Shown here: positions 2,526 to 32,000 of the stretch, piece after piece
Position numbering within the stretch: position 1 is the first letter of the stretch
How the letters are laid out: every line of letters begins with the position of its first letter
Assembly: GCA_963741095.1 (NCBI GenBank)
Contig: CAVUGN010000001.1
Location: 88,996-120,995, forward strand
Length of the DNA: 32,000 bases
Source: an uncultured Candidatus Micrarchaeota archaeon
GTDB lineage: Archaea; Micrarchaeota; Micrarchaeia; Micrarchaeales; Micrarchaeaceae
Direction: 5' to 3'
Translations under genes and position numbers: made by a program
Notes under the pieces: generated by a model
The model's database searches: none
Seen by the model: only the letters and a program-made list of their open reading frames with translations
Told to the model about the DNA's origin: nothing

Positions 2526-2529
2526 TTGC

Positions 2530-2898
2530 ATGATTGTCAAGAAAAAGAGCCACCCGAACTTCAAAGTGCCGAACTACGGCGCCAAGAACAGGAGTCGAGT
2601 CAAGGCCAGATGGAGGAAGCAGAGGGGCATAGACAACAAGAAGAGGATAAAGAAGGATTTCGCCGGAGCTGAGCCGACCATAGGCTACAAGAACATGGAT
2701 TCACAGATGGGACTCAGGGCTGACGGCAACCGGATGATACTTGTGCACAACGTCGCAGAGCTGCAGGGCTTCATAGACAGGAAGGAGCTGCAGAATTGTG
2801 TGGTCACGGTCTCGAGGAGCGTCTCCAAGAGGAAGAACGCCGAGATAACCGGGCTGGCGACGAAGAACAAAGTGAAGGTCACGAACGGTGTGTATTGA
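2530..2898 (+). CDS. rpl32e: 50S ribosomal protein L32e (eL32)
   Basis: 122 aa, ...PNFKVPNYGAKNRSRVKARWRKQRGIDNKKR...; eL32 signature in the expected operon position. Confidence 0.88.
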   Translation: MIVKKKSHPNFKVPNYGAKNRSRVKARWRKQRGIDNKKRIKKDFAGAEPTIGYKNMDSQMGLRADGNRMILVHNVAELQGFIDRKELQNCVVTVSRSVSKRKNAEITGLATKNKVKVTNGVY

Positions 2899-3371: not shown

Positions 3372-3376
3372 TATTC

Positions 3377-4606: not shown

Positions 4607-4610
4607 TTTG

Positions 4611-5252: not shown

Positions 5253-5530
5253 TGAAGATAAACGTTAAAAAGGACGAGGGAAAGGAGCTTCAGATAGAGT
5301 TCGAGGCTCCGGACCTTACCGTGCCGGACATGATAGCAAAGGAATTGCTCACCAGCGACAGCGTCGAGTTCGCCGGAGTGCTGAAGGACCACCCGGAAGT
5401 GGGCAAGCCGCTGCTGGTGGTGAAGAGCAAGAAGAGCGCCAAGAGCGACCTGGTCAAGGCATTGGGAAACATAGATGAGGCTTTTACTGACTTGAAGTCC
5501 CAGATCTCCAAGACAAAGAAAAGCAAGTAG
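5252..5530 (+). CDS. rpoL: DNA-directed RNA polymerase subunit L (Rpo11)
   Basis: 92 aa, ...ELQIEFEAPDLTVPDMIAKELLTSDSVEFAGVLKDHPEVGKPLLVVKS..., an RpoL/Rpo11 pattern. The ATG overlaps the Csl4 stop (TAATG). Confidence 0.85.
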   Translation: MKINVKKDEGKELQIEFEAPDLTVPDMIAKELLTSDSVEFAGVLKDHPEVGKPLLVVKSKKSAKSDLVKALGNIDEAFTDLKSQISKTKKSK

Positions 5531-5535
5531 ATTAG

Positions 5536-6090
5536 TTGAAAGCCGGAACAAGGCTTGTCGCAATCGCAAGCGGGCCTATACAGGGTAGGAAGCGTGCGCT
5601 TCTTGTAGGGATAGTAGCACAAAAAAATACGGTAGAGGGCGTGATATCCGGCAGCGTCGCGGTGAATGGCGACGACGCCACCAGAAGGATAATCTCGATG
5701 GTGGGCAAGACAAGGTTCAAGGAGCAGATAGGACTTGTCGTCCTGAACGGCGTGGCGATTGCGGGCCTGAACGTCGTGGATGTCGAGAAACTCGAAAAGG
5801 CCATGGGAGTCGAGACGATAATACTCACCAGGACAAGGCCCGATCCTAGGAAGCTGATCCATGCGCTCAATTCCTTTGCGAAGAAGGACAATGTTGACGT
5901 CAAGGGCAGGGTTGCGCTCGTGAGGGCGCAGGCGAAGAGAAAGACCGAAAAAGCCAGCGGCTTCCGTCTGCAGAGCCTGATGAGCAAACACGACCTCGCC
6001 GTCTTCGCCACACAGAGCTACGAGATGATTCGTGTGGCGCACCTTGTGGCAAACGGCGTTTCCACGGGCGAGTCCAGGGGCAGGATATAG
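5536..6090 (+). CDS. DUF99/UPF0215 family protein, TTG start
   Basis: 184 aa. The C-terminal ...IRVAHLVANGVSTGESRGRI and the central ...LVVLNGVAIAGLNVVDVEKL... match the conserved DUF99 pattern (PLRVAHLIASG..GESRG). Confidence 0.75.
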   Translation: MKAGTRLVAIASGPIQGRKRALLVGIVAQKNTVEGVISGSVAVNGDDATRRIISMVGKTRFKEQIGLVVLNGVAIAGLNVVDVEKLEKAMGVETIILTRTRPDPRKLIHALNSFAKKDNVDVKGRVALVRAQAKRKTEKASGFRLQSLMSKHDLAVFATQSYEMIRVAHLVANGVSTGESRGRI

Positions 6091-6212: not shown

Positions 6213-6866
6213 ATGAACAGAAGCGCAAACAAGGACGGAAGGATGACGCCGCAGCGGGTGGAGGAACTGAGGGCGTTCGTTCGCGGAATAGATGTAACTC
6301 CAGAGGGTATAGTAAACAAGCCAGCCGCTGGGCCGAATGATATCGTAAAGAGATCCGATGTGGACAAGGATGTGGCAAGCGGATTGGGAAAGAAGCTGAT
6401 GGAAGAATTAAAAAAGCAGAATGTCGACGCTGACAAAGTCAGTAAACTGATTTATGACGGGGCCGATCTGGATTTTGTCGACGAACACGGCAACACGGCG
6501 ATGATATGGGCGGTGCGGAACGACAAGGCAGGATTCGTCGAGGCATTGATACGCGCCGGAGCCAACATGAACATCAAGGACGCCCAGGGCAACACCGCAT
6601 TGATGCACGCCACAATCTATGGCAACGGGAACATCTTCAGCCTGCTGCTGAACAATGGCGCAGACATGGATCTGCAGAACAAGACAGGCATGACTGCGCT
6701 GATGCTGGCCGCGAAATATAGTGATGACAAGATCCTGCAGAAATTGCTGTCTGCAGGAGCAAACGTACGCCTTAGGGACAATCTCAACAGGACGGTTTTC
6801 GAGCAAAGGCGCATGTCCGAGAGCGTGAGAAGGATACTCGAAGGGATAGAGAACAGGAGGGTGTAG
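6213..6866 (+). CDS. Ankyrin-repeat protein (about 4 ANK repeats), no signal peptide
   Basis: Repeated G-x-TALM-x-A...LL..GA(D/N)-x-N units, e.g. GNTAMIWAVRNDKAGFVEALIRAGANMNIKDAQ, GNTALMHATIYGNGNIFSLLLNNGADMDLQNKT and GMTALMLAAKYSDDKILQKLLSAGANVRLRD. Confidence 0.88.
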   Translation: MNRSANKDGRMTPQRVEELRAFVRGIDVTPEGIVNKPAAGPNDIVKRSDVDKDVASGLGKKLMEELKKQNVDADKVSKLIYDGADLDFVDEHGNTAMIWAVRNDKAGFVEALIRAGANMNIKDAQGNTALMHATIYGNGNIFSLLLNNGADMDLQNKTGMTALMLAAKYSDDKILQKLLSAGANVRLRDNLNRTVFEQRRMSESVRRILEGIENRRV

Positions 6867-9588: not shown

Positions 9589-10661
9589 AACAGTTGGTTA
9601 AGTTTAAAGACTCCAGTCGATGCTGCTGGAGGGCACCGCTATCAGATTTCGACAGCCATGCAAGTCGGCTCAACCACCTGGTTGGGCGGCGTACGGCTCA
9701 GTAACACGTAGTCAATCTACCGCAAAGAGGCGAATAACGTTGGGAAACTGACGCTAATGCACCATAGGCTATGACACCTGGAAGGAGTCATAGTTTAAAG
9801 GGACATGAATTGTAGTGTTTCCACTTTGCGATGAGGCTGCGGCGGATCAGGCAGATGGCGGGGTAACGGCCCACCATACCAATAACCCGTAGGGGATGTG
9901 AAAGCATAAGCCCCGAGAAGGGCACTGAGACAAGGGCCCTAGCGCTACGGCGTGCAGCAGGCGCGAAAACTCCACAATGTGCGAAAGCATGATGGGGGGA
10001 ATCTGAGTGATTCACTTCGGTGAATCTTTTGCTAAGTACAGCAAGCTTGGCGAATAAGTGCTGGGCAAGACCGGTGGCAGCCGCCACGGTAATACCGGCA
10101 GCACAAGTGGTGTCCACGATTATTGGGCTTAAAGCGCTCGTAGCTGGCCGAAGCCGTCTCATGTAAAATATTGGTGCTTAACATCAATGCGTGCATGAGA
10201 TACCCTTCGGCTTGGGAGCGGGTGAGGTCAGGAGTACTTATGGGGGAGGGGTAAAATCCTGTAATCCTATAAGGACTAACGGTGGCGAAGGCGCCTGACC
10301 AGAACGCATTCGACAGTGAGGAGCGAAGGCTAGGAGAACGAATCGGATCAGATACCCGAGTAGCCCTAGCAGTAAATTATGCAGACTCTGGTGTTACAAA
10401 CATCTCGAATGTTTGTAGTACCGTAGCGTAAGTGTTAAGTCTGCCGCCTGGGGAGTACGGCCGCAAGGTTGAAACTTAAAACAATTGGCGGGGGAGCACC
10501 ACAAGACGTGGATGCTGCGGTTTAATTGAATACATCGTCGGAAATATTACCAGAAGCGACGGCAGTGTGAAGGTCAGACTAAAGATCTTACCAGACGAGC
10601 CGAGAGGTAGTGCATGGCGATCGTCAGCTCGTGGTGTGAACTGTCCGGTTAAGTCCGGTAA

Positions 10662-11168
10662 GCTGGCGAGTGGTACAAATGACAAAGAAACTTGAATTGA
10701 ATCCAGACTTGAGTTACATGCTTGGTCTGCATCAGTGCAACAAGCAGGATTCTTATGTAGGCGTAGCTTCAGCAAGCAACGAGCTCATAGAGAGATTCGT
10801 GAAGCTTGCGTTGTACGACCTGAAGATCGAGCCGAACAAGATTCTTGTCGAGGAGGGAAAAGCGATTTTCTACAACTCGAAGATAAGGAAATTGTTCGAC
10901 AGTGCTCTTGGAAGAAGGATAAAGATATTCAAGTACCGAAACGAATACGCATCAAACTATCTTGCAGCCTTATACGACTGCAACGGTGGCGTAGACAGGA
11001 AAGGCCTCTTTCTGAGGAACCTGGAAGGTGCGGATGAAATGATCATGGAGAACATCGGATTCCACTCCGCGAAAGCGGGGTCAAAGAATTACGTGTTCAA
11101 CCAGGGATGAGTTTCTCACGTTTATCAGGCCCTACAGTATTAGGGCAAACCATTCGCCCGCCCGGTAA
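10662..11168 (+). mobile_element. Archaeal bulge-helix-bulge (splicing-endonuclease type) rRNA intron carrying a homing-endonuclease-like ORF
   Basis: The conserved 16S sequence is interrupted between GGTTAAGTCCGGTAA and CGAGCGAGACCC. The boundary is ambiguous by 7 nt because CCGGTAA occurs at both junctions (10655-61 and 11162-68). The intron ends pair (10662-73 with 11150-61), and a 4-bp CCGG/CCGG helix is flanked by UAA bulges on opposite strands. Confidence 0.85.
10670..11110 (+). CDS. Intron-encoded LAGLIDADG-like protein (compact, two degenerate motifs)
   Basis: 143-146 aa (GTG 10670 or ATG 10679). Motif 1 is LSYMLGLHQCNK and motif 2 is NYLAALYDCNGGVD, about 80 aa apart. This fits a single-chain double-motif LAGLIDADG fold. 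Both motifs carry N where the catalytic D/E is expected. Confidence 0.65.
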   Translation: MVQMTKKLELNPDLSYMLGLHQCNKQDSYVGVASASNELIERFVKLALYDLKIEPNKILVEEGKAIFYNSKIRKLFDSALGRRIKIFKYRNEYASNYLAALYDCNGGVDRKGLFLRNLEGADEMIMENIGFHSAKAGSKNYVFNQG

Positions 11169-11633
11169 CGAGCGAGACCCTCGCTGACAGTTGCAACGGG
11201 TTTAGAGATAAATCCGGCACTCTGTCGGGACCGCCTCTGTTTAAAGAGGAGGAAGGAGAGGGCCACGGTACGTCAGTATGCTCTGAATCTTCTGGGCCAC
11301 ACGCGGCATACAAAGGTTGGCACAATGAGATGCAATGCCGAAAGGCAAAGCCAATCCCCAAAAACCAACCTAAGTTCGGATTGAGGGTTGAAACCCACCC
11401 TCATGAAGCTGAAATGTCTAGTAATCGCTTGTCACCATCGAGCGGTGAATCTGTCCCTGCTCCTTGCACACACCGCCTGCCAAGTCACCTAAGTGGGGTC
11501 CTAGTGAGGCAGCACCTTAGGGTGCTTTCGAGTTAGGGTTCTATGAGGAGGGCTAAGGCATAACAAGGTATCCGTAGGGGAACCTGCGGATAGATCACCT
11601 TAAAACTTCGAGAGAAGTTACATAGTGTGCACA

Positions 11634-14537: not shown

Positions 14538-15635
14538 ATGGTACAGGCATTCAAAGAAAGCGTGAACCCTTCGCAGGATAAGTCTAACCCGCAGGGATTT
14601 ATCAGGTCAGATAATCAGGGCAAGAATGATAGCACTGTTAAAGCAGAGCGGAAGCAATCCTCTGATGATGGAAGAAAAGCGTTCATAAACTGGGGTTATG
14701 CGGGCATCGTTAACAGCTGTACCGAAGTAAGCGGAGTTGACAGGCTGATCGGGAACCTTTGGAGGATGCACGAGCTTACGGGGGCCGCGATACCGGTGGA
14801 TCTGCACGAGAAGGTGCTTGACTGGATTGCAGGGTGCCCGGCGGATTGCACATTGAAGATGTTGGAGGCATACCTGCAAGTGGGAAAACCAAATTTCACG
14901 CAGGCGGATGCCGATAAGTTTTACGCAAGGATAATGTATCATGAAAACAACGGTGTCATTATGAGTTCCCCTGGGAATTTTAAGAAGTTATACCGGCTTT
15001 ACGAGATGACTGGGATCAAGAGCAGTAACGATTCTGACATGAGAAGGGCTTACGCCAGGCAGAAGAGTTTAGACTGCTATCCTGACCTGATCGACTACTT
15101 CCTGAACAAGAAAGACAAGAACGAGGTAGTTTCTTTCCTCGAAAAGGTGAGGCTGCCGGTGCACGGTGTCGTTGCGATAAAAATTGAGTTTGGGATGCCG
15201 GTTTCTAAGGACGAGGTGAAGCAGGCATACGAGTACGTTATGAACCTCCGCAAAGCCAACGGCAAGGTTGACAGGCTGGGTGGCATCATCCTCGGATTGA
15301 AGAGCAATCCAGTGCTGGAATCTCTCAAGCAGGATCTTGAGAGGGTTGTCGATCGGGTGAACGACATGAACAAAAGAACACTCTTCAAAGAGGATGCGAA
15401 TGAGGCAAAAGAGGTATTCGAAGCGATAAACAAAGTGATGGATGGCGTCTCAAAGCTGGGTTTGGTGGATTTGAAGGGTTTACGCGAGATGCGTAAGAAG
15501 ATCTATGACATGCAGGAGACTTTCCTTGGATCTTTCTATCATTCTTCCACCCCGATCGAAGGACAAAGACAGTGTTTGATGCTGCAGAAATTGCTGAAGG
15601 ACGAAATAGCCCCGACGATGCAGAATGCGACTTAA
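14538..15635 (+). CDS. Hypothetical protein (365 aa, predicted mostly helical, no recognisable family)
   Basis: A long ORF with coding-like composition and a polar low-complexity N-terminus. It has no TM segment or signal peptide, and I recognise no motifs. An AATAAATA box lies about 25-30 nt upstream of the ATG, so the transcript may be leaderless or short-leadered. Confidence 0.55.
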   Translation: MVQAFKESVNPSQDKSNPQGFIRSDNQGKNDSTVKAERKQSSDDGRKAFINWGYAGIVNSCTEVSGVDRLIGNLWRMHELTGAAIPVDLHEKVLDWIAGCPADCTLKMLEAYLQVGKPNFTQADADKFYARIMYHENNGVIMSSPGNFKKLYRLYEMTGIKSSNDSDMRRAYARQKSLDCYPDLIDYFLNKKDKNEVVSFLEKVRLPVHGVVAIKIEFGMPVSKDEVKQAYEYVMNLRKANGKVDRLGGIILGLKSNPVLESLKQDLERVVDRVNDMNKRTLFKEDANEAKEVFEAINKVMDGVSKLGLVDLKGLREMRKKIYDMQETFLGSFYHSSTPIEGQRQCLMLQKLLKDEIAPTMQNAT

Positions 15636-19764: not shown

Positions 19765-20469
19765 TTAGAGTTTGAACGACGGAAACGGCTCTGCCAGATT
19801 TATCACGCGGACGTACATGTGGGATTTGCCGCTGAATGAGTTAGACGTCTCGACCTGGCCGGTGAGGTAGTTGTAGCTGATGGAGTTAAACACTCTCTTC
19901 TGGTCGACCTTTGCAAAGGCAAGGAATCTTGCCTCGCCGTCATGGAAGATCTCGTACGAACCTATGAAATGCTCTCCCTTGTAGAAGAAGCCGTAGACCT
20001 TCGGCGCACCACTGTCATCACCCATCCCGCTTAGCAGCACCTTTATCAGCGATGCGAAATCCTTTACCGGCAGCAGTTTTATCTCCGGCTTTGCGCTGTT
20101 CTTCGCGCCGTAGGGGCTCTTCATGAACTCTATTATCGGTATCTTGTAAAGCCTCAGGTCCGGGGCCTCGGCGTTTATGTCGTCCTTCATCTCCGCGCCC
20201 TCCTCCCTTACGGATTCTTCTCCAGGGCTGTAGACGCAGAACTTGCCGATGCTGTTTGAGTCGCAGTAGTAGAGCAGGCGCACCTCGCCGACCTTCTCAC
20301 CCATGGTGAACAGATGGTATAACTTGTTCTCCTTCACTGCGTTTATGGGGCTCACGGAGCCAGTGAAGTCGCAGACGTTCCTTGCAAGATCAAGGATGGA
20401 GTTGAGCTTTATGTAGCATGCTGCCGTCTCGCCTCCGGCCTTGCCTTTTTTCTTTGGCATTGCACTCAT
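19765..20469 (-). CDS. Hypothetical cytoplasmic protein (234 aa), last gene of the pilin-associated cluster
   Basis: Its start overlaps the stop of the upstream secreted-protein gene by 4 nt (20466-20469), implying co-translation. It has no TM segment and no motif I recognise. Confidence 0.55.
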   Translation of the reverse strand: MSAMPKKKGKAGGETAACYIKLNSILDLARNVCDFTGSVSPINAVKENKLYHLFTMGEKVGEVRLLYYCDSNSIGKFCVYSPGEESVREEGAEMKDDINAEAPDLRLYKIPIIEFMKSPYGAKNSAKPEIKLLPVKDFASLIKVLLSGMGDDSGAPKVYGFFYKGEHFIGSYEIFHDGEARFLAFAKVDQKRVFNSISYNYLTGQVETSNSFSGKSHMYVRVINLAEPFPSFKL

Positions 20470-21376: not shown

Positions 21377-21934
21377 TCAGCTGAACTTGGCGGAGAATTG
21401 TATGATCCGCTGTATCGTGTTCGTGGTGCTTGGCAGGTTGGAGTAGGTGTAATTCAGCCAGAGGTAGCCGGTCATCGTGGTGCCCGGAGAGCCCTTGGCA
21501 TAGCCGTTGGCGCCGAAGCAGTTTGCCGAGAATGCGACCTGGCTGCTGGAGTACAGCGTGAGGGGCGTCTGCAGGTTGCTGTTGACAGGATAGAACTGCG
21601 GAGCCGCGGTGTATTTGACGAGATTGATGTTGCCGTACTGCGGCCAGTCGCCTATGGCGTTGACCGAAGCCGAACAGGCTGCGGCGTTTATTATTATGGT
21701 GCCGCCGGTCGCCTGCGAGAGCAGCACGGTGAACGAGCCGGTCCTGTTGAGCGCGAAGGCGACGCACGAGAACGACGGAGCGGCGTTGCAGTAGGTTGGC
21801 GCGAGGGCCTGGTTCGCGAACATGAAGTGGAATATCACGTAGGAGATTATCGCGAGCACTATGAACACAAGCCCGTACGCGGACATGAAATCCAGGGCCG
21901 CCTGGGCTTTCATGGGTTTTGTCTTCGCACTCAT
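21377..21934 (-). CDS. Archaeal type IV pilin-like protein (class III signal peptide)
   Basis: The N-terminus MSAKTKPMKA|QAALDFMSAYGLVFIVLAIISYVIF has a basic leader, a (K)(A/G)-Q processing motif with acidic +5, and a roughly 20-aa hydrophobic helix, followed by a Cys-containing beta-rich body. It starts 12 nt after the response-regulator stop. Confidence 0.75.
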   Translation of the reverse strand: MSAKTKPMKAQAALDFMSAYGLVFIVLAIISYVIFHFMFANQALAPTYCNAAPSFSCVAFALNRTGSFTVLLSQATGGTIIINAAACSASVNAIGDWPQYGNINLVKYTAAPQFYPVNSNLQTPLTLYSSSQVAFSANCFGANGYAKGSPGTTMTGYLWLNYTYSNLPSTTNTIQRIIQFSAKFS

Positions 21935-21946: not shown

Positions 21947-23149
21947 TCACTCTTCTTCCGCTCCGGACTTGCCGATCTGGAGCTTGACTCCGCTGGGATC
22001 CCGCGTTATCTTCACGTCGAGCTCGTCGCTGCCGAAGAGCTTGCGCAGCTCGTCGTAGGTGTATGAGCCCAGGTCCCTTGCCACGTCGCCCTTGCTCTTG
22101 AGTATCTCCTTCCTGCGCTCGGCTATCTTCTCCTTGTCGACGCGCTCGAACGACAGTGACAGCCGCGGCACCTCGTTCGATTCGAAGAGGTTGTCTATGT
22201 TGAGGTCTATGAACTTGTAGCCCTCGTCCTGCAGTATGAACGGGAGCACCGCGTTGAATTCCTGCTTCACCTCCTCGACCGCCGCCTCGACGCGCTCCTT
22301 GGAGCCGGCGAGCACGAAGACGTCGCTGTTCAGGAAGCCCGCGAAGGCGCGCTCCTCCTTGTCCTTCGACAGTATGTCCTGCAGCAGCTGCGAGACTAGC
22401 CTGAGTATGACGACTCCGGATTTCCCGCCGAAGCGCTTCACGTAGTCGCCCAGGTGCTCTATCTTCAGCGTGCCTATGAAATATTCGGATCCCGCCTTTA
22501 TGGAGTGCTCCACCTCCTTGGATATGCGCTCCTCGTCAGGCAGGTCTATGAGCGGGTCGAACTTCTTGCCCTTCTTCTTCAGGAATATTGTGACAAGGCT
22601 CCTCAGCTCCTTGGGATCGAACGGCTTCTTTATGTAATAGTCTGCGCCGTACTTCAGGCCCTTGAACCTGTTGCTCGTCGGGTCCATTGCGCTTATAAGT
22701 ATGACCGTGGTGTTGCTCGTGTCAGGATCGCCCTTTATGGTCTGGCAGATGTCCAGGCCATCCTTGTTGGGCAGCATCAGGTCGAGTATGACCAGATTCG
22801 GCCTGTTGCTCCTTATGAATTTTATCGCCTCGCCGCCGTCGTACAGCTGGTTTATCTCGAACTCCTTCCCTATCGAGAGCGCCATGAGCTTGTTTATGTT
22901 CTTGTCGTCCTCTACGATCAGCACCTTCCTCAACGGGTTCTGCTGCAGCAGGTAGTACATCATCACGCCCCCGGCGCTCCTTGATGCGATCAGCTGCTTC
23001 TCTTCCAGCACCAGGAGGCTGTCCCTGAGCTTGCGCTCGGATATGCCCCGGTTGAACGCGACGTCGCCCAGCTCGTTGTAGGAGATCTGCTGCCGCTCGT
23101 TTATTATGCTCAGAATGTCGTCAATTTCGCTGCCGTTCTGTGAAGCCAT
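21947..23149 (-). CDS. Response regulator: N-terminal winged-HTH, receiver (REC) domain, C-terminal degenerate GGDEF-like (nucleotidyl-cyclase fold) domain
   Basis: The REC domain has LIVEDD, ILDLMLP (phospho-Asp), VILISA and KKPF. The C-terminal half is DPLIDLPDEERI...FIGTLKIEHLGDYVKRFGGKSGVVILRLVSQLL...AFAGFLNSDVFVLAGSKERVEAAVEEVKQEF. By eye it aligns position-for-position with the GGDEF layout D-x-LTGLxNR...LDIDxFKxxND..GHxxGDxxL...aRyGGDEFxxll...A..xAExir. The signature GG(D/E)EF is replaced by LNSDVF. Confidence 0.6.
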   Translation of the reverse strand: MASQNGSEIDDILSIINERQQISYNELGDVAFNRGISERKLRDSLLVLEEKQLIASRSAGGVMMYYLLQQNPLRKVLIVEDDKNINKLMALSIGKEFEINQLYDGGEAIKFIRSNRPNLVILDLMLPNKDGLDICQTIKGDPDTSNTTVILISAMDPTSNRFKGLKYGADYYIKKPFDPKELRSLVTIFLKKKGKKFDPLIDLPDEERISKEVEHSIKAGSEYFIGTLKIEHLGDYVKRFGGKSGVVILRLVSQLLQDILSKDKEERAFAGFLNSDVFVLAGSKERVEAAVEEVKQEFNAVLPFILQDEGYKFIDLNIDNLFESNEVPRLSLSFERVDKEKIAERRKEILKSKGDVARDLGSYTYDELRKLFGSDELDVKITRDPSGVKLQIGKSGAEEE

Positions 23150-23296
23150 CCAATCGCCTATAGGGTATCAACAAAAAGTAATATTAGGCTTTTGATGTTT
23201 CGGTTGTAGTCGGAAGGTCCTGCGCTCCGATTGAAGGCGCTCGCACGCATTAGCCAACGTATTTAAAGTCTTTTTGACCAATAACTACGTTTTTAC

Positions 23297-24295
23297 ATGG
23301 CGGAACCCAGCAGAGACCCGGCAAGATCCAGCAGGCGTGGACATGGCATGAACAAGACGGCCATCGGGGCGCTTGTGGTGGTCGTGATAGCGATCGTTTG
23401 GGCATATTTTGCATTGTCGAATGGCGCCGTGGGCATCAGCGCTGCCAGCGTGGAAACCCTTACCCCCGCACCGAGCTATTTCAGCATGGGTTCGGGCACA
23501 TACTCCTTTTCGGTCGCACAGACGGGAAACAGCATGGCCTACGTTTATGTCGACAAGCTTCCGGTGTTCATGAACCAGCCGATGGAGGTCATGGTCGAGG
23601 AGAACAACATGACAAGGATAAACGCCGACTCTGGCAGCTTTGCAAACATGGGGATAACGCTTCAATCCGTGAACGGCAACAGCGTGAAGGTGGAGATAAC
23701 ACCGTTGGAGGCGAGCCTTGGGCTTGCGCCGGACACGGCCAGGATAAGCACTGTGAACAACATGCTGCTCGCCAACGGCAGGAAGAACGTTACGACGAGC
23801 ATCACCACAACGGCCACCACGACCGTTGCGTCAACCACCACGGTCTCGCAGATCAACACCACGAGCGCGAACATAATGGCTGCGCTCAAGAAGAACAAGT
23901 CCTACGCAGTGATGCAGAACTACACCGTCCTGTACGCAAATTCGGCAAACTGCACGCAGAGCAAATACAACAGCGCGTACCTGAAATACTACGGTGTCAT
24001 GCCAACCGGGCCGGAGGACTACCTGAACGTCAGCACGTTCCCGCTGCCTTATGGCTTCTACACGAAAACGACGAACATTGGCAGGGGCAACTATTCGTTC
24101 GTTTACAAGTCCGAATCGACGGATTCCGATTACAACAACAGTCCTGCAGTGACCATACTGATAAACGTATCGGGCTCCAGCGCGTACAACGTGACTTTCG
24201 GGGGCATATTCGAAGGCCAGACTTATCTTGGAATACTCGATGGTTACAATAAAGCTGCGGGCATAGGCGGCCCATGCGCGGCAGTCGTGCCGTAA
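23297..24295 (+). CDS. N-terminally anchored extracellular glycoprotein candidate (332 aa)
   Basis: A basic N-tail precedes the TM helix AIGALVVVVIAIVWAYFAL. The body has a Thr-rich linker (TTSITTTATTTVASTTTV) and many sequons. A TATTTAAA box at 23260-67 favours ATG 23297; ATG 23348 is the alternative. Confidence 0.7.
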   Translation: MAEPSRDPARSSRRGHGMNKTAIGALVVVVIAIVWAYFALSNGAVGISAASVETLTPAPSYFSMGSGTYSFSVAQTGNSMAYVYVDKLPVFMNQPMEVMVEENNMTRINADSGSFANMGITLQSVNGNSVKVEITPLEASLGLAPDTARISTVNNMLLANGRKNVTTSITTTATTTVASTTTVSQINTTSANIMAALKKNKSYAVMQNYTVLYANSANCTQSKYNSAYLKYYGVMPTGPEDYLNVSTFPLPYGFYTKTTNIGRGNYSFVYKSESTDSDYNNSPAVTILINVSGSSAYNVTFGGIFEGQTYLGILDGYNKAAGIGGPCAAVVP

Positions 24296-24299: not shown

Positions 24300-26582
24300 T
24301 TATTGCGCGTCCTTGTGCACTGCCGGCTGCGCCGATGCCGGCTTCTTCTTCGGCTTCGGGTTTATCGGCAGCGTGAACCAGAACTTGCTGCCCTTTCCTG
24401 GCTCCGACACAAAGTCGATCTTGCCGCCGTGCAGCGTTATTATGTCCTTGGTTATTGACAGCCCCAGGCCGGTGCCCGCCTGCTCCTGCTTGACCAGCTC
24501 CTTCTTCGGGGCCTGGTAGAACTTCTTGAAGAGTTGCCTCTGGTCCTCGGGGTTTATGCCTATTCCAGTGTCGATGATGCTGCACTTCACGGACTTCTTG
24601 CTCTTTCTTTCTATCTCAACGGTTATGCCGCCGGTCTCGGTGAACTTCACCGCGTTTCCTATCAGGTTCACGAAGACCTGTATGAGCCGGTTTATGTCCG
24701 CGGTTATCTCGGGCACGTCGAACTTCGCGTTCCATGCGAAGGTCAGCCCCTTTGCCTCGGCGGATTCCTTGAGCGCCTTTATGCTCGGGTTGCCGCCCAG
24801 CTCCTTGAGGTCGACGCCCTCCTTCAGCTCGAGCTTCACCTTGTCGGAGTCGAGCTTCGCCGCCTCGAGCACCTGCTGTATTATCTGCGTGAGCCGCTTC
24901 ACTTCTTCTATTATTGTGAAGACGTAGTCCTTCTGCTCGGCGTTAAGCACACCGGGGCCGCCGTCGTACAGCAGTATGGAATAGCCGTTTATGTTAGTGA
25001 GCGGCGTCTTCAGCTCGTGGGTTATGTTGTAGATGAACTGGGACTTGAGGTCGCTTGTGGACTTGAGCCTGCTCACTTTGTTGAGCAGTTCCTTTATATC
25101 AGATTCCTGCTCGTTGATCCTCCTTCTCGTGGCCAATTCCTTCGTAACTATTATGTAGCTGGAATTCCCGTCTATGTCCTTGAAGGCGCGCATCGAGTGC
25201 GTCGCAGGCACCTTCGAGCCGTCCTTTGCGAACAGGTCTATGTAGGAGTTGTCCACCTTATTGCCCTTTCTCACGTAGGACATGTCGCGGTCGAGTATGG
25301 ACGGGTCGGCATAGAGGTTTCTTATGTCCTTGCCGGCGAGCTGGTCCCGCGCATAGCCCAGCACGGGCTCCACAGGCATGTTCGAACTTTTTATAAGTCC
25401 TGTTGCGTCAACCACCATGACTATGTCCGAGGTGTTGTCTATGAAATCGGTAAGAGTGGACTGCATGTTGGCCACGTACTGCTCGGCTCGCGCGTTCGCG
25501 AACAGCAGCACGTACCCGTTCGTCAGCTTCGACGCGACATAGCGTATCAGCACCGGGGCGGAATCGGCGCTCATCAGGTTCATCGAACCTGAGAGGCTTC
25601 GCGTTCCCTTGGACAGCTTCTCCTTTAGCTCGACCCTTTCGTTCAGGGGCACCATGTCGGTTATGAGCTTCCCGACGACCAGGTCGCTCTGGTATCCCAT
25701 GACCTTCTCTATGCTGTTGGTGACGTCGGTGACCGTCAGGTTGTCGTCGAGGTACATTATCCCGGCGTATGCAGACTCGCCCATCAGCGAGAGGATCTTC
25801 TTGAACTTCTCGAGCTCGGTCACGTTCTGCACCGAGACGTGCATCAGCCGCTCGTTGACCGGCCTTGAGGCCAGCGCGTAAACGCGCATGGCGTTGTTCA
25901 GGTTGAGCTCCACCCTCGCGCTGCCCGAAGCGAGCTGCTTGACGTCGAGGTTGAGTATCTTGCCGATCTCGCTGTTCTGCACATCGTAGCCGAACTCGTT
26001 GATGGCGCTCTTGTTCGCCTTGACTATTGAGCCTGTGTTCGACACAAGCAATTGCGGTGTAACGCTGCTGAAGGCGCCGTCGAAATAGCTCGCCAGCCTC
26101 GCGCTCTTGCTGCTCTCGTACTTGTACATCAGCGCGAAGCCCATGAACGAGGCTCCGAACGAGATGCTGCTCATCAGGTCCTCGGTGAACTTGTTCTCCG
26201 CGTTGGAGAGCAGCTCCATCACCGACACGACCCTGCCGCCAGTCATGACCGGCATGATGGCGCAGCTCTTGTAGCCCCTGTTCTTGTAGCCTATGAATTC
26301 GGGAAACGAAGAGAAATCGCTCAGCTGGTTGTCGATGTAACTTTTTCGGGTGTTGAGCACGTAGTCGAGCAGCGCGCTGCTCTTGTAGTCGCCGCTGTAG
26401 ATGTTGGTCATGCTGACCTTGTCCAGGCCGAAGTACTCCGAGATTATCTTGGTGAACTGCCTCGTCAGCTCTTCCTCGCTCACCGCGCTGTTGGTGATGG
26501 GTATGAGGTCGAGGAGCAGTTTGCTGACAACCATTTCGTGTACCATATCAACATACCCTTCCAGACGAGTGCAGCCATTCAA
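24300..26582 (-). CDS. Cytoplasmic sensor histidine kinase (GAF-like domain, about 3 PAS-like domains, HisKA, HATPase_c)
   Basis: The H-box is SQFIYNITHELKTPLTNINGYS (His codon at 25017-25019). The N box is NLIGNAVKFT, G1 is DTGIGI and G2 is GTGLGLSI. No TM segments. The roughly 500-aa N-terminal sensory region has PAS-like repeats. Confidence 0.88.
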   Translation of the reverse strand: MNGCTRLEGYVDMVHEMVVSKLLLDLIPITNSAVSEEELTRQFTKIISEYFGLDKVSMTNIYSGDYKSSALLDYVLNTRKSYIDNQLSDFSSFPEFIGYKNRGYKSCAIMPVMTGGRVVSVMELLSNAENKFTEDLMSSISFGASFMGFALMYKYESSKSARLASYFDGAFSSVTPQLLVSNTGSIVKANKSAINEFGYDVQNSEIGKILNLDVKQLASGSARVELNLNNAMRVYALASRPVNERLMHVSVQNVTELEKFKKILSLMGESAYAGIMYLDDNLTVTDVTNSIEKVMGYQSDLVVGKLITDMVPLNERVELKEKLSKGTRSLSGSMNLMSADSAPVLIRYVASKLTNGYVLLFANARAEQYVANMQSTLTDFIDNTSDIVMVVDATGLIKSSNMPVEPVLGYARDQLAGKDIRNLYADPSILDRDMSYVRKGNKVDNSYIDLFAKDGSKVPATHSMRAFKDIDGNSSYIIVTKELATRRRINEQESDIKELLNKVSRLKSTSDLKSQFIYNITHELKTPLTNINGYSILLYDGGPGVLNAEQKDYVFTIIEEVKRLTQIIQQVLEAAKLDSDKVKLELKEGVDLKELGGNPSIKALKESAEAKGLTFAWNAKFDVPEITADINRLIQVFVNLIGNAVKFTETGGITVEIERKSKKSVKCSIIDTGIGINPEDQRQLFKKFYQAPKKELVKQEQAGTGLGLSITKDIITLHGGKIDFVSEPGKGSKFWFTLPINPKPKKKPASAQPAVHKDAQ

Positions 26583-26667: not shown

Positions 26668-27066
26668 ATGCGCGACATAAGAGGCTTGGTCGCGAGAGCC
26701 CTGAGGGACATGGAGCTCGCGAAGAGGTACAGACAGAGGAAGGAATACGCGGCGACCACATTGCTCTACAACAAGGCGATAGAGAGAGTGCTCAAGGCCC
26801 TGTTCATAAGCAAGAAGAGGAAGAACCCGCCACTGGGAGCGTCTGCGGTGTTCCTGGCGTCCAACATCAAGATGCCCGAAGAGATAATGAGCGGGCTGGC
26901 GGCGCTGCAGGAGGCCGACGACGAGGTCTTGTGGAGCGGAAATGAGGCGGCCATAATGACCTACGAGCGGATAGGCAAGAGCATGAAGGCGGAGCACAAG
27001 CTCATCCAGATGGACGAGCTCGCCACGAGGCTCATCGACTCCGCGATGGGGCGCGCCAAGGCATGA
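26668..27066 (+). CDS. HEPN-domain-like protein (132 aa)
   Basis: ARALRDMELAKRYRQRKEYAATTLLYNKAIERVLKALFI fits the HEPN helix pattern A..dL..A......Y..a....qA.Ek.lKAL. I did not see a clear R-x4-6-H motif or a partner nucleotidyltransferase. Confidence 0.45.
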   Translation: MRDIRGLVARALRDMELAKRYRQRKEYAATTLLYNKAIERVLKALFISKKRKNPPLGASAVFLASNIKMPEEIMSGLAALQEADDEVLWSGNEAAIMTYERIGKSMKAEHKLIQMDELATRLIDSAMGRAKA

Positions 27067-27131
27067 ATGCGGGATGGGAGGCCGCACGGATAGGATTTAT
27101 AGTCTTCACAGCCCCAATAGTGGTGGATCCA

Positions 27132-27791
27132 ATGGCATTGAGGCAGCTTTTTCCGGGCGTTTATCTCATAGACGGCAAGATCGCAACTCTTAACCTCGCA
27201 AGAGGCTACAAGGTCTACGGCGAGGATCTCGTCGTGGTCGACAGGGAGGAGTACAGGCTGTGGAACCCGTACAGGAGCAAGCTCGCCGCGGCGATGAAGG
27301 TCGGGATGAGGAACTTCAACATAAGATGGGGCGACCGCGTCCTGTATCTCGGCGCCGCCACGGGGACGACGGCCAGCCACGTGAGCGACATAGTCGGAAA
27401 GGACGGCAGGGTCTACGGCCTGGAGCTTTCGGAGCGGAACATGCGCGAATTCATAGGCGTCTGCGAGCACAGGAGCAACATGCTGCCGATACTCGCAGAT
27501 GCAAGGTACACGGACAGCTACAGCGGAACTGTCGATCTTTGCGATGTGATATACCAGGACGTTTCCGCAAGGGACCAGGCGCACATACTGTTGGAGAACA
27601 GCAGGTTCCTTAAGAAGGGCGGGCTTGCTTATTTCGTCATAAAGTCGCAGAGCGTCGACGTGTCGAAGAGGCCCGAAGAGGTTTATCGCAACGTGCTGGA
27701 CAGGCTGAAGGGCAGTTTCTCGATTCTTGAGCGCATGAGCCTTGAGCCCTACGACAGCCTGCACCTGTTCACGGTGCTCAGGAAGATTTAG
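27132..27791 (+). CDS. flpA: Fibrillarin (rRNA/tRNA 2'-O-methyltransferase FlpA)
   Basis: ...LFPGVYLIDGKIATLNL..G.KVYGE......YR.WNPYRSKLAAA...VLYLGAATGTTASHVSDIV...YGLE.S.R......R.N..PIL.DAR.... ATG 27132 gives a typical roughly 219-aa archaeal fibrillarin. The track start at 27063 adds a non-homologous leader. Confidence 0.92.
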   Translation: MALRQLFPGVYLIDGKIATLNLARGYKVYGEDLVVVDREEYRLWNPYRSKLAAAMKVGMRNFNIRWGDRVLYLGAATGTTASHVSDIVGKDGRVYGLELSERNMREFIGVCEHRSNMLPILADARYTDSYSGTVDLCDVIYQDVSARDQAHILLENSRFLKKGGLAYFVIKSQSVDVSKRPEEVYRNVLDRLKGSFSILERMSLEPYDSLHLFTVLRKI

Positions 27792-27807
27792 CTTTGGTGG
27801 TGGATCC

Positions 27808-28632
27808 ATGGATGCCGGAAAATGCATGAAGCTGCTAAGAGACATAGAGAAATCCGGAACGAAACTCATCTGCACCTACTGCGGAGTCGAGACGCTGTCG
27901 GTGGGCAGCACGGGCATATGCTCCAACTGCGAGAATTTCATAGACACGGACAGGAAGTCGCTCATGGGCACCGACCCGGAGCGGGTGGACGACCTCGATG
28001 CCATAAGGAAAGGAATCGCGAACAGGGATTTCGAATCCGTGATATCGGTCTATGAAAAGATGAGGAGCGTCGACGAAGAGCCGTCGCTGATGTACGCCGA
28101 GGCACTGGCGTGCATAGGCTACTCGAACTATGAGATATCACTCATAAGATACGACAGGAAGGGTTTCATGGAGGAGAACACGGCGCTCCGGAACAAGGGC
28201 TCCGAGATCGCTTCGAAAGCTAAACTGCTGATCACTAAGGCCATGCACCTCGCGACCGATGACATAGACAAGGGAAATGCATCCACGGGCACCATGTACA
28301 CCCTCTTCCTGTTGCAGATAAAGCTTGGAGCGATGAAGGGGGCGGAGTACATGCTGCACGAGCTGAACAGGGTCGGAGGCTACATCCCGGAGTACACCAA
28401 CATCGTCTTCAATGCGAACATGAGGAGGTATGAAGACATGATGAAGCACGTCGACATGATGGAGAGGGGCAACCAGCTCCCGCTGAATACGGTCTATTAT
28501 GTCGCATTGGCGCTGTTCAAAAGCGGGAATATTGCAGATTCTGGGGGGCTGCTGGTGGCGCTGCAGAAATTTATGTCCAGTCCCAATGTTGAATCGCTAC
28601 TTGCAGAGATCGTGGGCACGCAGCAGGTATGA
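27808..28632 (+). CDS. Hypothetical protein with N-terminal zinc ribbon (CxxC-x15-CxxC) and helical-repeat (TPR-like) body
   Basis: ATG 27808 is preceded by GGTGGTGGA. The Zn ribbon is CTYCGVETLSVGSTGICSNCENF, and the remainder is helical. The track start at 27742 overlaps fibrillarin. Confidence 0.6.
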   Translation: MDAGKCMKLLRDIEKSGTKLICTYCGVETLSVGSTGICSNCENFIDTDRKSLMGTDPERVDDLDAIRKGIANRDFESVISVYEKMRSVDEEPSLMYAEALACIGYSNYEISLIRYDRKGFMEENTALRNKGSEIASKAKLLITKAMHLATDDIDKGNASTGTMYTLFLLQIKLGAMKGAEYMLHELNRVGGYIPEYTNIVFNANMRRYEDMMKHVDMMERGNQLPLNTVYYVALALFKSGNIADSGGLLVALQKFMSSPNVESLLAEIVGTQQV

Positions 28633-29415: not shown

Positions 29416-32000
29416 TTAGCTATTAAATAGTGGTTTCCGATAGGTCGGCCAGGTGCTGTGCCGCCTTCTCCTCTTTACGGCCAGGTATATGGCCGACATG
29501 ATTATGATGATGGAGACTGCCGCTATGCCGTATTCGGCGCCGTTGTTGGATGTTGGCTTTTGCGCTATCGTGGTGGGCGTTGTCGTAGCAGGCTGTGTCG
29601 GTTCGAACAGTGCCACGGTGCGATCCACGCCGATGTTGAATGACACCAAGCAGGCGGTAGCGTTGATCGTGCCATTCGTTATCGGCTGCCATGTGCCGTT
29701 TACCAACAGGTATGGGGATACCTCGCTTGAAGGTATGCTGCAATTGTAGCTGAGCCGCATCATCAGGTTCAGTTCGGACTGCAATTTCGCGACGCCGGTC
29801 ACGTTTATCCTCAATGCGAGGAGCTTTGTATAACCAGGAAGGAGCACAGTATCGTTGCGGGTCACATTGGTTATTGTTATGTTGAAGTGCCCTGAGGATG
29901 TGGACTGTACGATTACATACGCCTGGCCATTGTTGAGGTCGAGCGTGCTGGATCCCGAGCTCGGCACCGATATTGTTGTCGAGACGTTGTTTCCAGACAC
30001 GTTCAGCTGGGGCGTAGTCTGCGGCTGCACGGTGGTCGTGGCTGTTGTCGCAACGGTGGTGATCGTAGAGGTGGCAGAGGTGGTTGAAGAGATCGCATTT
30101 GTGGAAGGGGAGCCCGACCCAGCCCCGCCCTGTGATTGCTGTGTGCCAACCTGGATGGTGTTCTGGACCGAACTGAAGATGTATGGAACGTTGGTGCCGG
30201 TGTCCGTGATAACCGCGTTGTACGAATCCGTGCCTGCAGGAGGGACGAATGCCCCGAAAGTGATGGTGCCGGCGAACTGGCCGGTGAGCGTATTGACCAC
30301 CGCGCCACTAGATGCGACTAGGTTGGCGACGAACGGTCCAATGCCGCCATTGAGAAGCACGTTGTAGGTGATAGATTGGCCAACAGTCAATTGAGATGCG
30401 GACGGCGTCAGGGAAGTGGCGGTGGGCGTAACCGCGACAGTTATGGTGTTTGATGATGCCGAGAATGAGGATTCCGGAGTGTTAGAAGAATCAGTCACTT
30501 CGAGCGCGAAGTTGTAGGTGTTGCCGCCTGCCAGCGTGCCTGCAGGTATGGTACAAGTCGCGGTGTTGCCCGCGATCTGGCCGCTGCCGGTGTTCGCAGT
30601 GCACTGGGTTGCGCCGGAATATGCACCGCCATTCACGGAAATGTGCCAGGTGTATGAATAGGGCGATGTGCCAGTGGACGGCAAGACGGCGGTTATTGTT
30701 TCAGTCTGGCTGGAGTCGATTGTTGAATACGCTATTCCTGGCTGGGCTGATTGAGTGAGTTGCGGTGACACGGTTATGGTCGACGAAGCAGTGGATGTGG
30801 AAATCTCATTAGCCTGCGAGCTGTCGGATACTCGGAGTTCGAAACTGTAGGTTTTGATTGTGGATAATGTGTTGCCGGGTATGCTGCAGGTGACGATGTT
30901 GCTGGAAGTCTGCCCGGTGCCGCTGTTGGTTGCGCATTGGGTTGTGGCGGAATATGAGACGCCCCCGTTGGTCGAGACGAGCCAATTATAGGTGTATGGC
31001 GATACTCCGGTTGATGGGATCACGGCAGTGATTGTCTCGGCCTGATCGACGTCGAGCTTCGATGTTGACACCGTGGGCGCGGATGGCGCTGTGAGCGGCG
31101 GATACACAGTAACAGTGCCGGATGAAGCGGAGAAGACGCTCTCCTGGGCGGTCGCGGAATCTGTTGTCTCCAGCGCGAAGGTGTAGAAGTCGCCTCCGGA
31201 CAATGTGTTGCCTGGTATGGTGCATGTGACCGTGTTGCCGGGGATCTGGCCGCTGTTGCTGTTGACTGTGCATTGCGTTGCGCCGGCGTATACGCCGTTG
31301 TTTGTGGAGACGTGCCACGTGTACGCGTAAGGCGAGGTGCCCGTTGACTGGATGTTGGCGGTCACAGTCTCAATCTGGTCGGAGTCGAGGTTCGCGGCCG
31401 AGATTGATGGAGTGTTGGAATTTGTGAGCGGCGACGCCACGACGACGTTCTGAGTCGTGAATGAGTTCGTCGTGTCGGGAATCGTGTCGCTGTCGGTGAC
31501 CTGCAGCTTGAATGAATAGGTGTGCGTGGCGATAAGATTTCCTCCGAAGATGTTGCAAAGCACCGTAACGCCGTTGGCTTCGCCCGTTCCGCTGTTGACG
31601 TCGCATTGGGCCGTCGGTGCATAAGAGCCGCCGTTGTCCGAGATCAGCCAATTGTAGGTGTACGGTGCGGTGCCCGTTGATGGCATGACGCCGGTTAGGA
31701 TCTCTGTTTGGTCCGCGTCGAGGCTTGATGCGGAAACTGCAGGCGAGTTTGCCACAGCCGGGGATACCACGTTTATCGTGTTGTTTGAAGCGGAAAATGC
31801 GCTCTCCTGCGCGGTCGCGGAATCCGTTATCTCAAACGCGAAGTTGTAGAAGTTGCCACCGGCGAGAGTATTGCGCGGAATGGTGCAGGTGACTGTGTTG
31901 CCCGCAATCTGGCCGGTGCCGCTGTTGACCGTGCACTGCGTTGCGCCGGCGTATACACCGTTGTTTGTGGAGACGTGCCACGTGTATGAATAGGGCGCTG
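29416..32000 (-). CDS. Very large repeat-containing surface protein, 3' part (5' end outside window); C-terminal TM anchor
   Basis: The track ORF begins at GTG 31770. My translation of 31771-31998 in the same frame has no stop and continues the repeat (...APYSYTWHVSTNNGVYAGATQCTVNSGTGQIAGNTVTCTIP...). From N to C the window shows at least 5 tandem 111-aa Ig-like units, one degenerate unit, a T/S linker and a sequon-rich domain. The C-terminus is the TM helix AAVSIIIIMSAIYLAV followed by KRRRRH. Confidence 0.85.
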   Translation of the reverse strand, partial: APYSYTWHVSTNNGVYAGATQCTVNSGTGQIAGNTVTCTIPRNTLAGGNFYNFAFEITDSATAQESAFSASNNTINVVSPAVANSPAVSASSLDADQTEILTGVMPSTGTAPYTYNWLISDNGGSYAPTAQCDVNSGTGEANGVTVLCNIFGGNLIATHTYSFKLQVTDSDTIPDTTNSFTTQNVVVASPLTNSNTPSISAANLDSDQIETVTANIQSTGTSPYAYTWHVSTNNGVYAGATQCTVNSNSGQIPGNTVTCTIPGNTLSGGDFYTFALETTDSATAQESVFSASSGTVTVYPPLTAPSAPTVSTSKLDVDQAETITAVIPSTGVSPYTYNWLVSTNGGVSYSATTQCATNSGTGQTSSNIVTCSIPGNTLSTIKTYSFELRVSDSSQANEISTSTASSTITVSPQLTQSAQPGIAYSTIDSSQTETITAVLPSTGTSPYSYTWHISVNGGAYSGATQCTANTGSGQIAGNTATCTIPAGTLAGGNTYNFALEVTDSSNTPESSFSASSNTITVAVTPTATSLTPSASQLTVGQSITYNVLLNGGIGPFVANLVASSGAVVNTLTGQFAGTITFGAFVPPAGTDSYNAVITDTGTNVPYIFSSVQNTIQVGTQQSQGGAGSGSPSTNAISSTTSATSTITTVATTATTTVQPQTTPQLNVSGNNVSTTISVPSSGSSTLDLNNGQAYVIVQSTSSGHFNITITNVTRNDTVLLPGYTKLLALRINVTGVAKLQSELNLMMRLSYNCSIPSSEVSPYLLVNGTWQPITNGTINATACLVSFNIGVDRTVALFEPTQPATTTPTTIAQKPTSNNGAEYGIAAVSIIIIMSAIYLAVKRRRRHSTWPTYRKPLFNS
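30148..32000 (-). repeat. Tandem array of 333-bp (111-aa) coding repeats with alternating A/B subtypes
   Basis: The P-Y-x-Y-x-W motif recurs at residues 36, 147, 258 and 369 of the track ORF and again at the window edge. A-type units (YTWH(V/I)S..NG.Y.GATQCT.N...GQI.GNT.TCTIP) alternate with B-type units (YTYNWL(I/V)S.NGG). A-type copies 663 nt apart (about 31258-31330 and 31921-31993) are nearly identical in DNA. Confidence 0.85.

Follow-up and report, generated by a model that had tools for sequence, protein, structure and literature searches.

The response regulators of Candidatus (Ca.) Micrarchaeum were catalogued by Galperin et al. in their 2018 census of archaeal two-component systems (PMC5847659), where the ARMAN orthologs are described as 'wHTH-REC-GGDEF' proteins, composed of a winged helix-turn-helix (wHTH), a receiver (REC) and a GGDEF domain, the last of which is inactivated. 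Table S3 of that census lists UNLARM2_0239 (EET90385) of ARMAN-2 under this architecture, with its kinase UNLARM2_0237 two genes away, and gives BK997_02000 of ARMAN-1 and JJ59_05330 of Micrarchaeum sp. AZ1 as REC-GGDEF. Here we analyse a 400-aa response regulator with a catalytically dead GGDEF domain, which is encoded on a 32,000-nt stretch of contig CAVUGN010000001.1 (positions 88,996 to 120,995 of the forward strand; this whole stretch is called the window) from an uncultured Ca. Micrarchaeota archaeon. The window protein shares with the three Ca. Micrarchaeum regulators the phylum, the architecture, the presence of one regulator per genome and the kinase - one gene - regulator spacing that their locus tags imply, and nothing essential differs between them, the window protein being by these features an apparent ortholog from another Micrarchaeota species. 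The feature is thus already known as a member of a catalogued family, and the census did not analyse that family.

The same census labels Mia14_0100, which has the identical kinase - one gene - regulator spacing, 'wHTH-REC-bGlyc', and two other Micrarchaeota regulators 'Other RRs' (CG1_02_55_22) and 'REC only' (RBG_16_49_10) (PMC5847659). Judging by architecture, synteny and single-copy status, these differently labelled proteins appear to form one orthologous family, the labels presumably being inconsistent because the GGDEF signal lies at the detection limit. As a class, wHTH-REC is common in the archaeal tables of PMC5847659, and the wHTH-REC regulators of haloarchaea and Nanohaloarchaeota (Tables S2/S3) likewise carry the winged helix N-terminal to the receiver, but they stop after REC, whereas the window protein goes on into a bacterial-type GGDEF module. 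An initial annotation of the window had singled out an N-terminal wHTH on a protein of this kind as an unusual architecture, which it is, but it is not a new one, as it already stands in the census. Galperin et al. left undecided whether the bacterial-type regulators of archaea are genuine or represent contamination (PMC5847659).

Among bacterial proteins, the same arrangement of REC, alpha5/linker and GGDEF is found in WspR (3bre, 3i5a), PleD (2v0n, 1w25) and DgcR (6zxb), the top Foldseek matches of the full-length model. Phosphorylation-driven rearrangement of the dimer is the established mechanism of these three proteins. They are, however, active cyclases with a GG[DE]EF signature, metal- and guanine-binding residues and an RxxD motif, all of which are missing from the window protein, and they lack both its N-terminal wHTH and its extra C-terminal helix and hairpin. 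Phosphorylation-activated synthesis of cyclic di-GMP (c-di-GMP) in the manner of WspR or PleD is accordingly not predicted for the window protein, whose catalytic residues are absent. Retention of the palm domain after loss of the cyclase is a trait that it shares with LapD, FimX, PopA, PelD and GdpP; LapD (3pjw) is among the Foldseek matches of the domain-only model, and one ortholog weakly matches Pfam GGDEF_GdpP. PopA and PelD bind c-di-GMP via RxxD, LapD and FimX pair their GGDEF domain with an EAL domain, and GdpP keeps a weak ATPase activity; to our knowledge none of the five is archaeal or fused to a wHTH.

Domain layout of the regulator

The gene and its segments occupy the following positions in the window (AF2, AlphaFold2):

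21947..23149, minus strand: response-regulator gene, 400 aa, wHTH-REC-degenerate GGDEF (list of open reading frames, Pfam Response_reg, orthologs)
22940..23128, minus strand: N-terminal wHTH, residues ~8-70 (AF2 topology and family profile)
22580..22927, minus strand: REC, residues 75-190, with phospho-acceptor D123 (Pfam PF00072, Foldseek)
22532..22579, minus strand: REC-to-GGDEF linker KKGKKFDPLIDLPDE, residues 191-206, the counterpart of the DxLTGLxNR entry motif of GGDEF domains
22139..22531, minus strand: degenerate GGDEF (palm) core, residues 207-337, with NSDVF (274-278) in place of GG[DE][DE]F (hhalign, Foldseek)
21965..22138, minus strand: helix alpha4 and family-specific C-terminal extension (helix, beta-hairpin), residues 338-395 (AF2 secondary structure, conservation)

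We are highly confident that this region is the output end of a response regulator in which a winged helix, a receiver and a GGDEF-homologous palm domain are combined. The span first annotated for the output domain, 22115-22558 on the minus strand, corresponds to residues 198-345 of the 400-aa open reading frame; these coordinates are right, but the domain itself runs past residue 345 to about residue 395 (window ~21965) by way of alpha4, a helix and a beta-hairpin. The AF2 models have a predicted local distance difference test (pLDDT) score of 78.9 for the full-length protein and 76.7 for the domain alone.

Orthologs of ~400 aa, more than 100 of them at 64-85% identity, come from Micrarchaeota ('Marsarchaeota', Micrarchaeaceae) metagenome-assembled genomes (MAGs). 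Conservation differs by segment: the linker (KKGKxFDPLIDLPDE, 191-206) is the most conserved with a mean pairwise identity of 90.5%, followed by REC (75-190) with 76.5%, the GGDEF-like core (207-337) with 57%, alpha4 with the C-terminal extension (338-395) with 55% and the wHTH (8-70) with 52%. Judged from these sequences, purifying selection on the dead domain is comparable to that on the wHTH. Within the GGDEF-like domain, a set of residues that are not part of the GGDEF consensus is invariant (R250, S253, Q254, Q257 and D258 in alpha2; Q307, D308 and G310 after alpha3), as are Y363, Y365, E367, D378, I381, T382 and R383 of the C-terminal extension.

Homology of the C-terminal domain to GGDEF domains

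The initial annotation had aligned the C-terminal part of the protein by eye with the GGDEF consensus. The blocks on which it relied are where it had placed them (DPLIDLPDE at residues 198-206, GTLKIEHLGDYVKRFGGKSGVVILRLV at 226-252, AFAGFLNSDVFVLAG at 268-282 and ERVEAAVEEVKQEF at 285-298), and its register is the same as that returned by hhalign and hmmsearch. When residues 194-400 (the last 207) are searched as a single sequence, neither Pfam, NCBIfam nor the PDB yields a GGDEF match, and the matches returned are noise (glycerol dehydrogenase, phosphoglycerate mutase and the like); Pfam PF00990 (gathering score 23.8 bits) has no match to the window protein even at E <= 10. This miss is a limit of sensitivity and not evidence against homology. 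Weak Pfam GGDEF matches are present in 10 of 34 close orthologs (best E 1.3e-4), and phmmer, queried with residues 194-400 in a search of 1.84 billion representative proteins, retrieves first the archaeal family and then ~30 further proteins with E-values of 1e-6 to 1e-3, whose alignments cover query positions of about 4-150. Fifteen of these further proteins were scanned, and 14 of them have a Pfam GGDEF domain above the gathering score in the same region.

These proteins come from Thermodesulfobacteriota, Chloroflexota and other bacteria and represent a GGDDF-type subfamily (NPLTxLPGN ... DLDxFKAYNDxYGFxRGD ... GHIGGDDF; P0142-P0172) that contains the proteins closest in sequence to the archaeal family. 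Both groups share the linker length and an insertion after helix alpha3 (P.Y/F..(D/Q)ED..GY), but the members of the subfamily are bacterial, keep all catalytic residues, reach the Pfam GGDEF gathering score and lack the wHTH. Comparison of a profile of 15 diverse archaeal C-terminal domains (A2) with one of 17 bacterial GGDDF-type domains (A4) using hhalign resulted in a probability of 99.4% and an E-value of 5e-21 over 141 columns, the C-terminal extension lying outside the match. The alignment pairs DPLIDLPDE with NPLTGLPGN, LKIEHLGDYVKRFGGKSG with VDLDNFKTYNDTYGFTRG and GFLNSDVF with GHIGGDDF. Searched against PDB sequences, the A2 profile has GGDEF domains as its top matches (6eib, 1.3e-3; DosC, 0.015; 3mtk, 0.038), with the family motif 'GFLNxxEF' opposite 'GRVGGEEF', and hmmsearch likewise pairs 'fvgflneeeFvi' of the family with 'FCGRVGGEEFII' of 6eib. 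As an observation on the subfamily itself, P0142 and P0144 have secondary Pfam matches to the second palm domain of Cas10/Cmr2 (E 1.6e-5 and 6e-4), and the GGDD-type signature of Cas10 is shared; the bacterial GGDDF-type subfamily may stand between classical GGDEF and Cas10-like palms.

The predicted structure agrees with the profiles. In both AF2 models the secondary structure elements follow the order a0-b1-a1-a2-b2-b3-a3-b4-a4 of the GGDEF fold, in which the b2-b3 hairpin carries the signature. With the full-length model as query, Foldseek places WspR (3bre, 3.8e-12; 3i5a), PleD and DgcR ahead of all receiver-only structures, in alignments that cover both domains, and with the domain-only model only GGDEF domains are at the top (DosC, 2.5e-5, then SiaD, DgcB, SadC and 6eib). 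Other palm families (Cas10/Csm1, Thg1, class III cyclases) were considered and rejected, as they reach Foldseek probabilities of 0.7-0.97 compared to 1.00 for GGDEF, and the sequence profiles indicate GGDEF only. Together, four independent lines (sequence search, profile-profile comparison, profile against PDB sequences and predicted structure) demonstrate that the C-terminal domain is genuinely homologous to the GGDEF/nucleotidyl-cyclase palm domain, as the initial annotation had proposed; significant matches to the fold were found by profile as well as by structure.

Loss of the catalytic and nucleotide-binding sites

Functional positions were tabulated over 84 sequences, with orthologs extracted from 83 loci and the register taken from hhalign and hmmsearch. 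The positions are given below by their residue numbers in PleD, which we take to be those used in the literature:

D327, metal-binding Asp on b1: K229 in the window protein; K or R in 73/84
K332, phosphate contact: G234 in the window protein; mostly G
N335, guanine binding: V237 in the window protein; A or V in most
D344, guanine binding: V246 in the window protein; M, I or V in most
G368-G369, signature Gly-Gly: N274-S275 in the window protein; GG in 0/84, usually NS

The signature of the window protein reads NSDVF, NSDEF being the commonest motif of the family, and its third position is acidic (D or E) in 68 of the 84 orthologs. An RxxD I-site, expected five residues upstream of the signature, was found within residues 260-271 in none of 82 orthologs. 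On this alignment the domain is without every residue needed for Mg2+/GTP binding and is not a diguanylate cyclase, and the position table bears out the earlier statement that the active site is degenerate and cyclase activity very unlikely. The initial annotation had further suggested that such a domain acts as a nucleotide receptor or as an interaction module. Both known nucleotide sites of GGDEF domains, the substrate site and RxxD, are lost, which argues against the first of these roles, and the domain is better understood as a module for interaction or transmission.

Receiver, linker and winged helix

In contrast to the output domain, the receiver is intact, as had been noted at the outset: the acidic pair D81/D82, D123 in ILDLMLP, S153 and K175 are all found, and each is invariant wherever an ortholog has the residue (82-83 of the 84 sequences). 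Pfam PF00072 (Response_reg) matches residues 76-186 with E 4e-23 and 82 bits (cut-off 30.2), and Foldseek matches the receiver to those of YycF, PhoB and DrrB with a root-mean-square deviation of 1.3-1.7 A. The linker that follows aligns with NPLTxLPGN of the bacterial relatives and has, within one residue, the length found in bacterial REC-GGDDF proteins, with which BLASTP aligns residues 76-333/375 contiguously and nearly without gaps (E 4e-33 and 6e-34). This suggests a single module of bacterial type, made up of REC, linker and GGDEF, to whose N-terminal end a wHTH of archaeal style has been fused.

The presence of an N-terminal wHTH, likewise part of the initial annotation, is supported both by the topology of the AF2 model, a1-b1-a2-a3-b2-b3 (H5-19, E21-23, H24-33, H38-50, E54-59, E62-67), and by the family profile, whose PDB matches are all winged-helix proteins. 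The best of these is the ArsR-type Rv0081 (8e-4), followed by CodY, SmtB, Lrs14 and TFE (E to 0.05), and the matches also include protein-binding winged helices (ESCRT-III/CdvB 2xvc, TFE). Distant orthologs have weak Pfam matches to TrmB and HTH_20.

Conserved gene neighbourhood

Synteny was counted by tblastn of the window's neighbouring proteins over the 83 loci, all of which contain the regulator (83/83). The following features surround it:

24300..26582, minus strand: GAF-PAS-PAS-HisKA-HATPase_c histidine kinase, 760 aa (Pfam), at the same relative position in 63/83 loci
23297..24295, plus strand: divergent gene, 332 aa, with an N-terminal membrane anchor, a Thr-rich linker and many NxS/T sequons, syntenic in 64/83 loci
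23154..23193, minus strand: putative promoter and 5′ region of the regulator, with B recognition element (BRE)/TATA (AAAGCCTAATATTAC), a GTTGATA box close to where transcription is expected to start and a Shine-Dalgarno-like AGGCGA
21377..21934, minus strand: type IV pilin-like protein, 185 aa, syntenic in 78/83 loci, its start 12 nt past the regulator stop codon
20466..21290, minus strand: secreted glycosylation-rich protein, 274 aa, with a signal peptide and NxS/T sequons in its translation, in 71/83 loci with a median identity of 55%
19765..20469, minus strand: conserved cytoplasmic protein, 234 aa, syntenic in 60/83 loci, with a 4-nt overlap with the stop of the 274-aa gene

The kinase is cytoplasmic, usually lies two genes from the regulator and is probably its cognate sensor. 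On the other side, the regulator is almost certainly co-transcribed with surface-structure genes. An archaeal class III signal peptide consists of a basic residue, then G/A/S, then Q, and then a hydrophobic helix. The 185-aa protein begins with K-A-Q-AALDFMSAYG followed by a hydrophobic helix, and the class III motif KAQAALDFMSAYG ([KR][AS]Q.A.DF..SYG) with its hydrophobic helix is seen in most of 45 orthologs displayed, so that by this motif the protein can be classed as type IV pilin-like (class III). Neither this protein nor the 332-aa divergent protein or the 234-aa protein has a match in Pfam or NCBIfam, and the sole family match of the 274-aa protein is a weak one to 'putative S-layer protein' (E 0.059). 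The 55% median identity of the 274-aa protein is unusually high conservation. Upstream of the regulator, the consensus AAAG.ATAATATTcTTT.tgt.GAtat..t.tAGGTGAcc...ATG is kept over 77 non-identical loci; the roles given to its boxes follow archaeal promoter rules and are predictions. A link of the locus to defence systems was also considered and rejected, the PADLOC matches (SduA, PDC-M60B) being at the level of the receiver only.

Distribution and archaeal origin

A scan with one genome per species found relatives of the regulator in 225 genomes, and the 80 best are essentially all Micrarchaeota. The closed genome of the cultured Ca. Micrarchaeum sp. A_DKE is among the carriers, and the carrier contigs, with conserved synteny, include ones of ~1 Mb. 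The protein is the main, and usually the only, two-component response regulator of the Micrarchaeota, a phylum of tiny symbionts with reduced genomes. The window itself contains the following marker:

9610-11603, plus strand: archaeal 16S rRNA gene (Rfam, 1314 bits)

In addition, the window encodes a tRNA-Lys, CDP-archaeol synthase (CarS) and a ribosomal-protein operon with the archaeal/eukaryotic S4e and L19e. With archaeal 16S rRNA, CarS, S4e and L19e all in the window, the contig is archaeal and the gene is not a bacterial contamination.

Some of the loci carry assignments worth recording. Full-synteny contigs L031, L035 and L073 are labelled in the database as belonging to MAGs of Methanothrix sp., Ca. 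Acidoferrum sp. and an Acidiferrales bacterium, and are probably mis-binned Micrarchaeota contigs. The regulator module is found on two contigs (L045 and L056) of one MAG (FK3.bin83), which would be either a bin of two strains or a case of duplication of the module.

Proposed mechanism and alternatives

In the mechanism that we propose, the neighbouring cytoplasmic kinase would phosphorylate D123. As in WspR, PleD and DgcR, phosphorylation would re-pack the dimer by way of REC alpha5 and the linker (FDPLIDLPD, nearly invariant). The dead GGDEF domains would then serve as a dimerisation or transmission scaffold in place of a catalytic pair, and the rearrangement of the dimer would bring both winged helices at the N-termini into position to bind DNA. 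The outcome would be transcriptional control of the regulator's own operon, with its pilin-like and surface proteins, and/or of the divergent gene, by which cell-surface structures would be tuned to a cytoplasmic signal. A phosphorylation-switched regulator of this kind, with the dead GGDEF domain as a scaffold and the wHTH as output to the adjacent surface-protein operon, is a tentative model whose probability we put somewhat short of even. Identity and mechanism taken together make up the best explanation as a whole, and here we come down slightly on the favourable side.

Several observations weigh against this explanation. The TM-scores of the domain model to solved GGDEF domains are just 0.39-0.47 on the query, a modest value to which a low-confidence loop (313-324) and the family-specific C-terminal extension likely contribute. 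The presumed recognition helix of the wHTH (38-50) is variable among orthologs while its wing (ASRSxGG..YY) is invariant, a pattern that would fit non-specific DNA contacts or a protein partner equally well as a specific operator. An alignment of 90 nt of upstream sequence from 77 loci of the regulator gene showed only BRE/TATA, the GTTGATA box and the Shine-Dalgarno sequence to be conserved; no conserved dyad or palindromic operator was found, leaving autoregulation via a palindromic operator unsupported. The domain has invariant polar residues of its own (R250, Q254, Q257, D258, Q307, D308), seemingly more than a pure scaffold needs. Finally, no functional work on the two-component system of Micrarchaeota or on any ortholog turned up in the searchable literature.

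The alternatives differ widely in how well they account for the data. It is barely conceivable that the resemblance to GGDEF is coincidental or that the gene is a bacterial contamination of an archaeal bin. Such a view could point to the missing Pfam, NCBIfam and single-sequence PDB matches of the window protein, and Galperin et al. considered that bacterial-type regulators might have entered draft genomes of archaea by contamination (PMC5847659); but coincidence is at odds with the hhalign E-value of 5e-21 and the concordant Foldseek results, and contamination with the archaeal markers in the 32-kb window, the 225 species genomes, the conserved synteny, the ~1 Mb contigs and the closed A_DKE genome. 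We therefore regard chance resemblance and contamination as ruled out by hhalign, Foldseek, archaeal markers and phylum-wide synteny. A domain that is still an enzyme, working through an unorthodox active site either as a diguanylate cyclase or as some other nucleotidyl transferase, might be read from the D/E kept at the third signature position in 68/84 and from NSDEF as the commonest motif. With the first metal Asp replaced by Lys/Arg in 73/84, the phosphate-contact Lys mostly by Gly, the guanine-binding Asn and Asp by hydrophobic residues, and the Gly-Gly turn gone in 84/84, this is very improbable, and residual enzymatic activity is effectively excluded.

More weight attaches to roles that require no catalysis. 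The dead GGDEF domain could be a receptor for a ligand or nucleotide that binds in a non-canonical pocket, so that the regulator would be a two-input switch responding to phosphorylation and a small molecule. It is well established that degenerate GGDEF domains of bacteria often bind c-di-GMP (PopA, PelD, SgmT) or GTP (PdeA), and the domain is under clear purifying selection (57% mean identity) with invariant polar non-consensus residues in alpha2 (R250, Q254, Q257, D258) and after alpha3 (Q307, D308, G310). We still consider a receptor unlikely, given that RxxD occurs in 0/82 orthologs, that base and metal contacts of the substrate site have become hydrophobic or basic, and that archaea have next to no known c-di-GMP machinery (PMC5847659). 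A bolder version, in which the polar stripe (R250, Q254, Q257, D258, Q307, D308) and the C-terminal hairpin form a new sensor or partner-binding module, making the protein a two-input switch for a pilin-like host-attachment apparatus (Thermoplasmatales) and a master regulator of DPANN symbiosis, seems to us similarly improbable. The main rival, doubtful in our estimation and yet clearly ahead of these, is a protein-protein output, in which the phosphorylated regulator would bind the pilin-like/surface machinery or the co-operonic 234-aa protein instead of controlling transcription, the binding part being the GGDEF-like domain, the C-terminal extension or the winged helix. Archaeal two-component signalling proceeds mainly through protein-protein interactions according to Galperin et al. 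(PMC5847659), the operon linkage with the genes of the pilin-like and the cytoplasmic 234-aa protein is tight throughout the phylum, and the variable recognition helix, the missing conserved operator and the profile matches to ESCRT-III/CdvB 2xvc and TFE would all be in keeping with it. Against it, none of the genes of the conserved module was recognised as coding for a type IV pilus ATPase or platform protein, the top matches of the wHTH are DNA-binding repressors (ArsR, CodY and SmtB types), and regulators of the wHTH-REC class are usually taken to be transcription factors.

Significance

The known distribution of GGDEF domains is unchanged by this analysis, because the core claim was published in the 2018 census (PMC5847659). 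To the question left by that census it adds that the gene is archaeal and not a contamination, and beyond it the occurrence in 225 species-level genomes, the finding that both nucleotide sites are completely lost, the relation to the bacterial GGDDF subfamily as a single module, the extreme conservation of the linker and the linkage in one operon with a type IV pilin-like gene. Should the phosphorylation-switched regulator indeed control surface structures, it would offer a small and tractable entry to the regulation of host contact in DPANN archaea, and would clearly exemplify how a lineage in which no c-di-GMP signalling is known has put a cyclase domain to new use as a structural relay.

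Other features of the window

Four large open reading frames have no Pfam family: 6871-9285 (minus strand, 804 aa), 29416-31770 (minus strand, 784 aa), 14538-15635 (plus strand, 365 aa) and 26961-27875 (minus strand, 304 aa), and relatives of the 304-aa protein turned up at 40 of the 83 loci. At 6213-6866 (plus strand) the window encodes a 217-aa ankyrin-repeat protein (Ank_2, E 6e-31), although the archaeal genome is a reduced one. Few archaea have such repeats, which are often tied to host interaction. The 16S rRNA gene at 9610-11603 measures 1994 nt against a model of 1478 positions and thus contains ~500 nt of inserted sequence at one or more sites, possibly an rRNA intron. Positions 1-6000 (plus strand) have a strong purine skew (GC ~0.19, AT ~0.3) over the plus-strand archaeal ribosomal-protein operon (S4e, L5, L6, L19e, L18, S5), which is followed by genes for a Csl4/Rrp4-like exosome subunit and an endonuclease dU.

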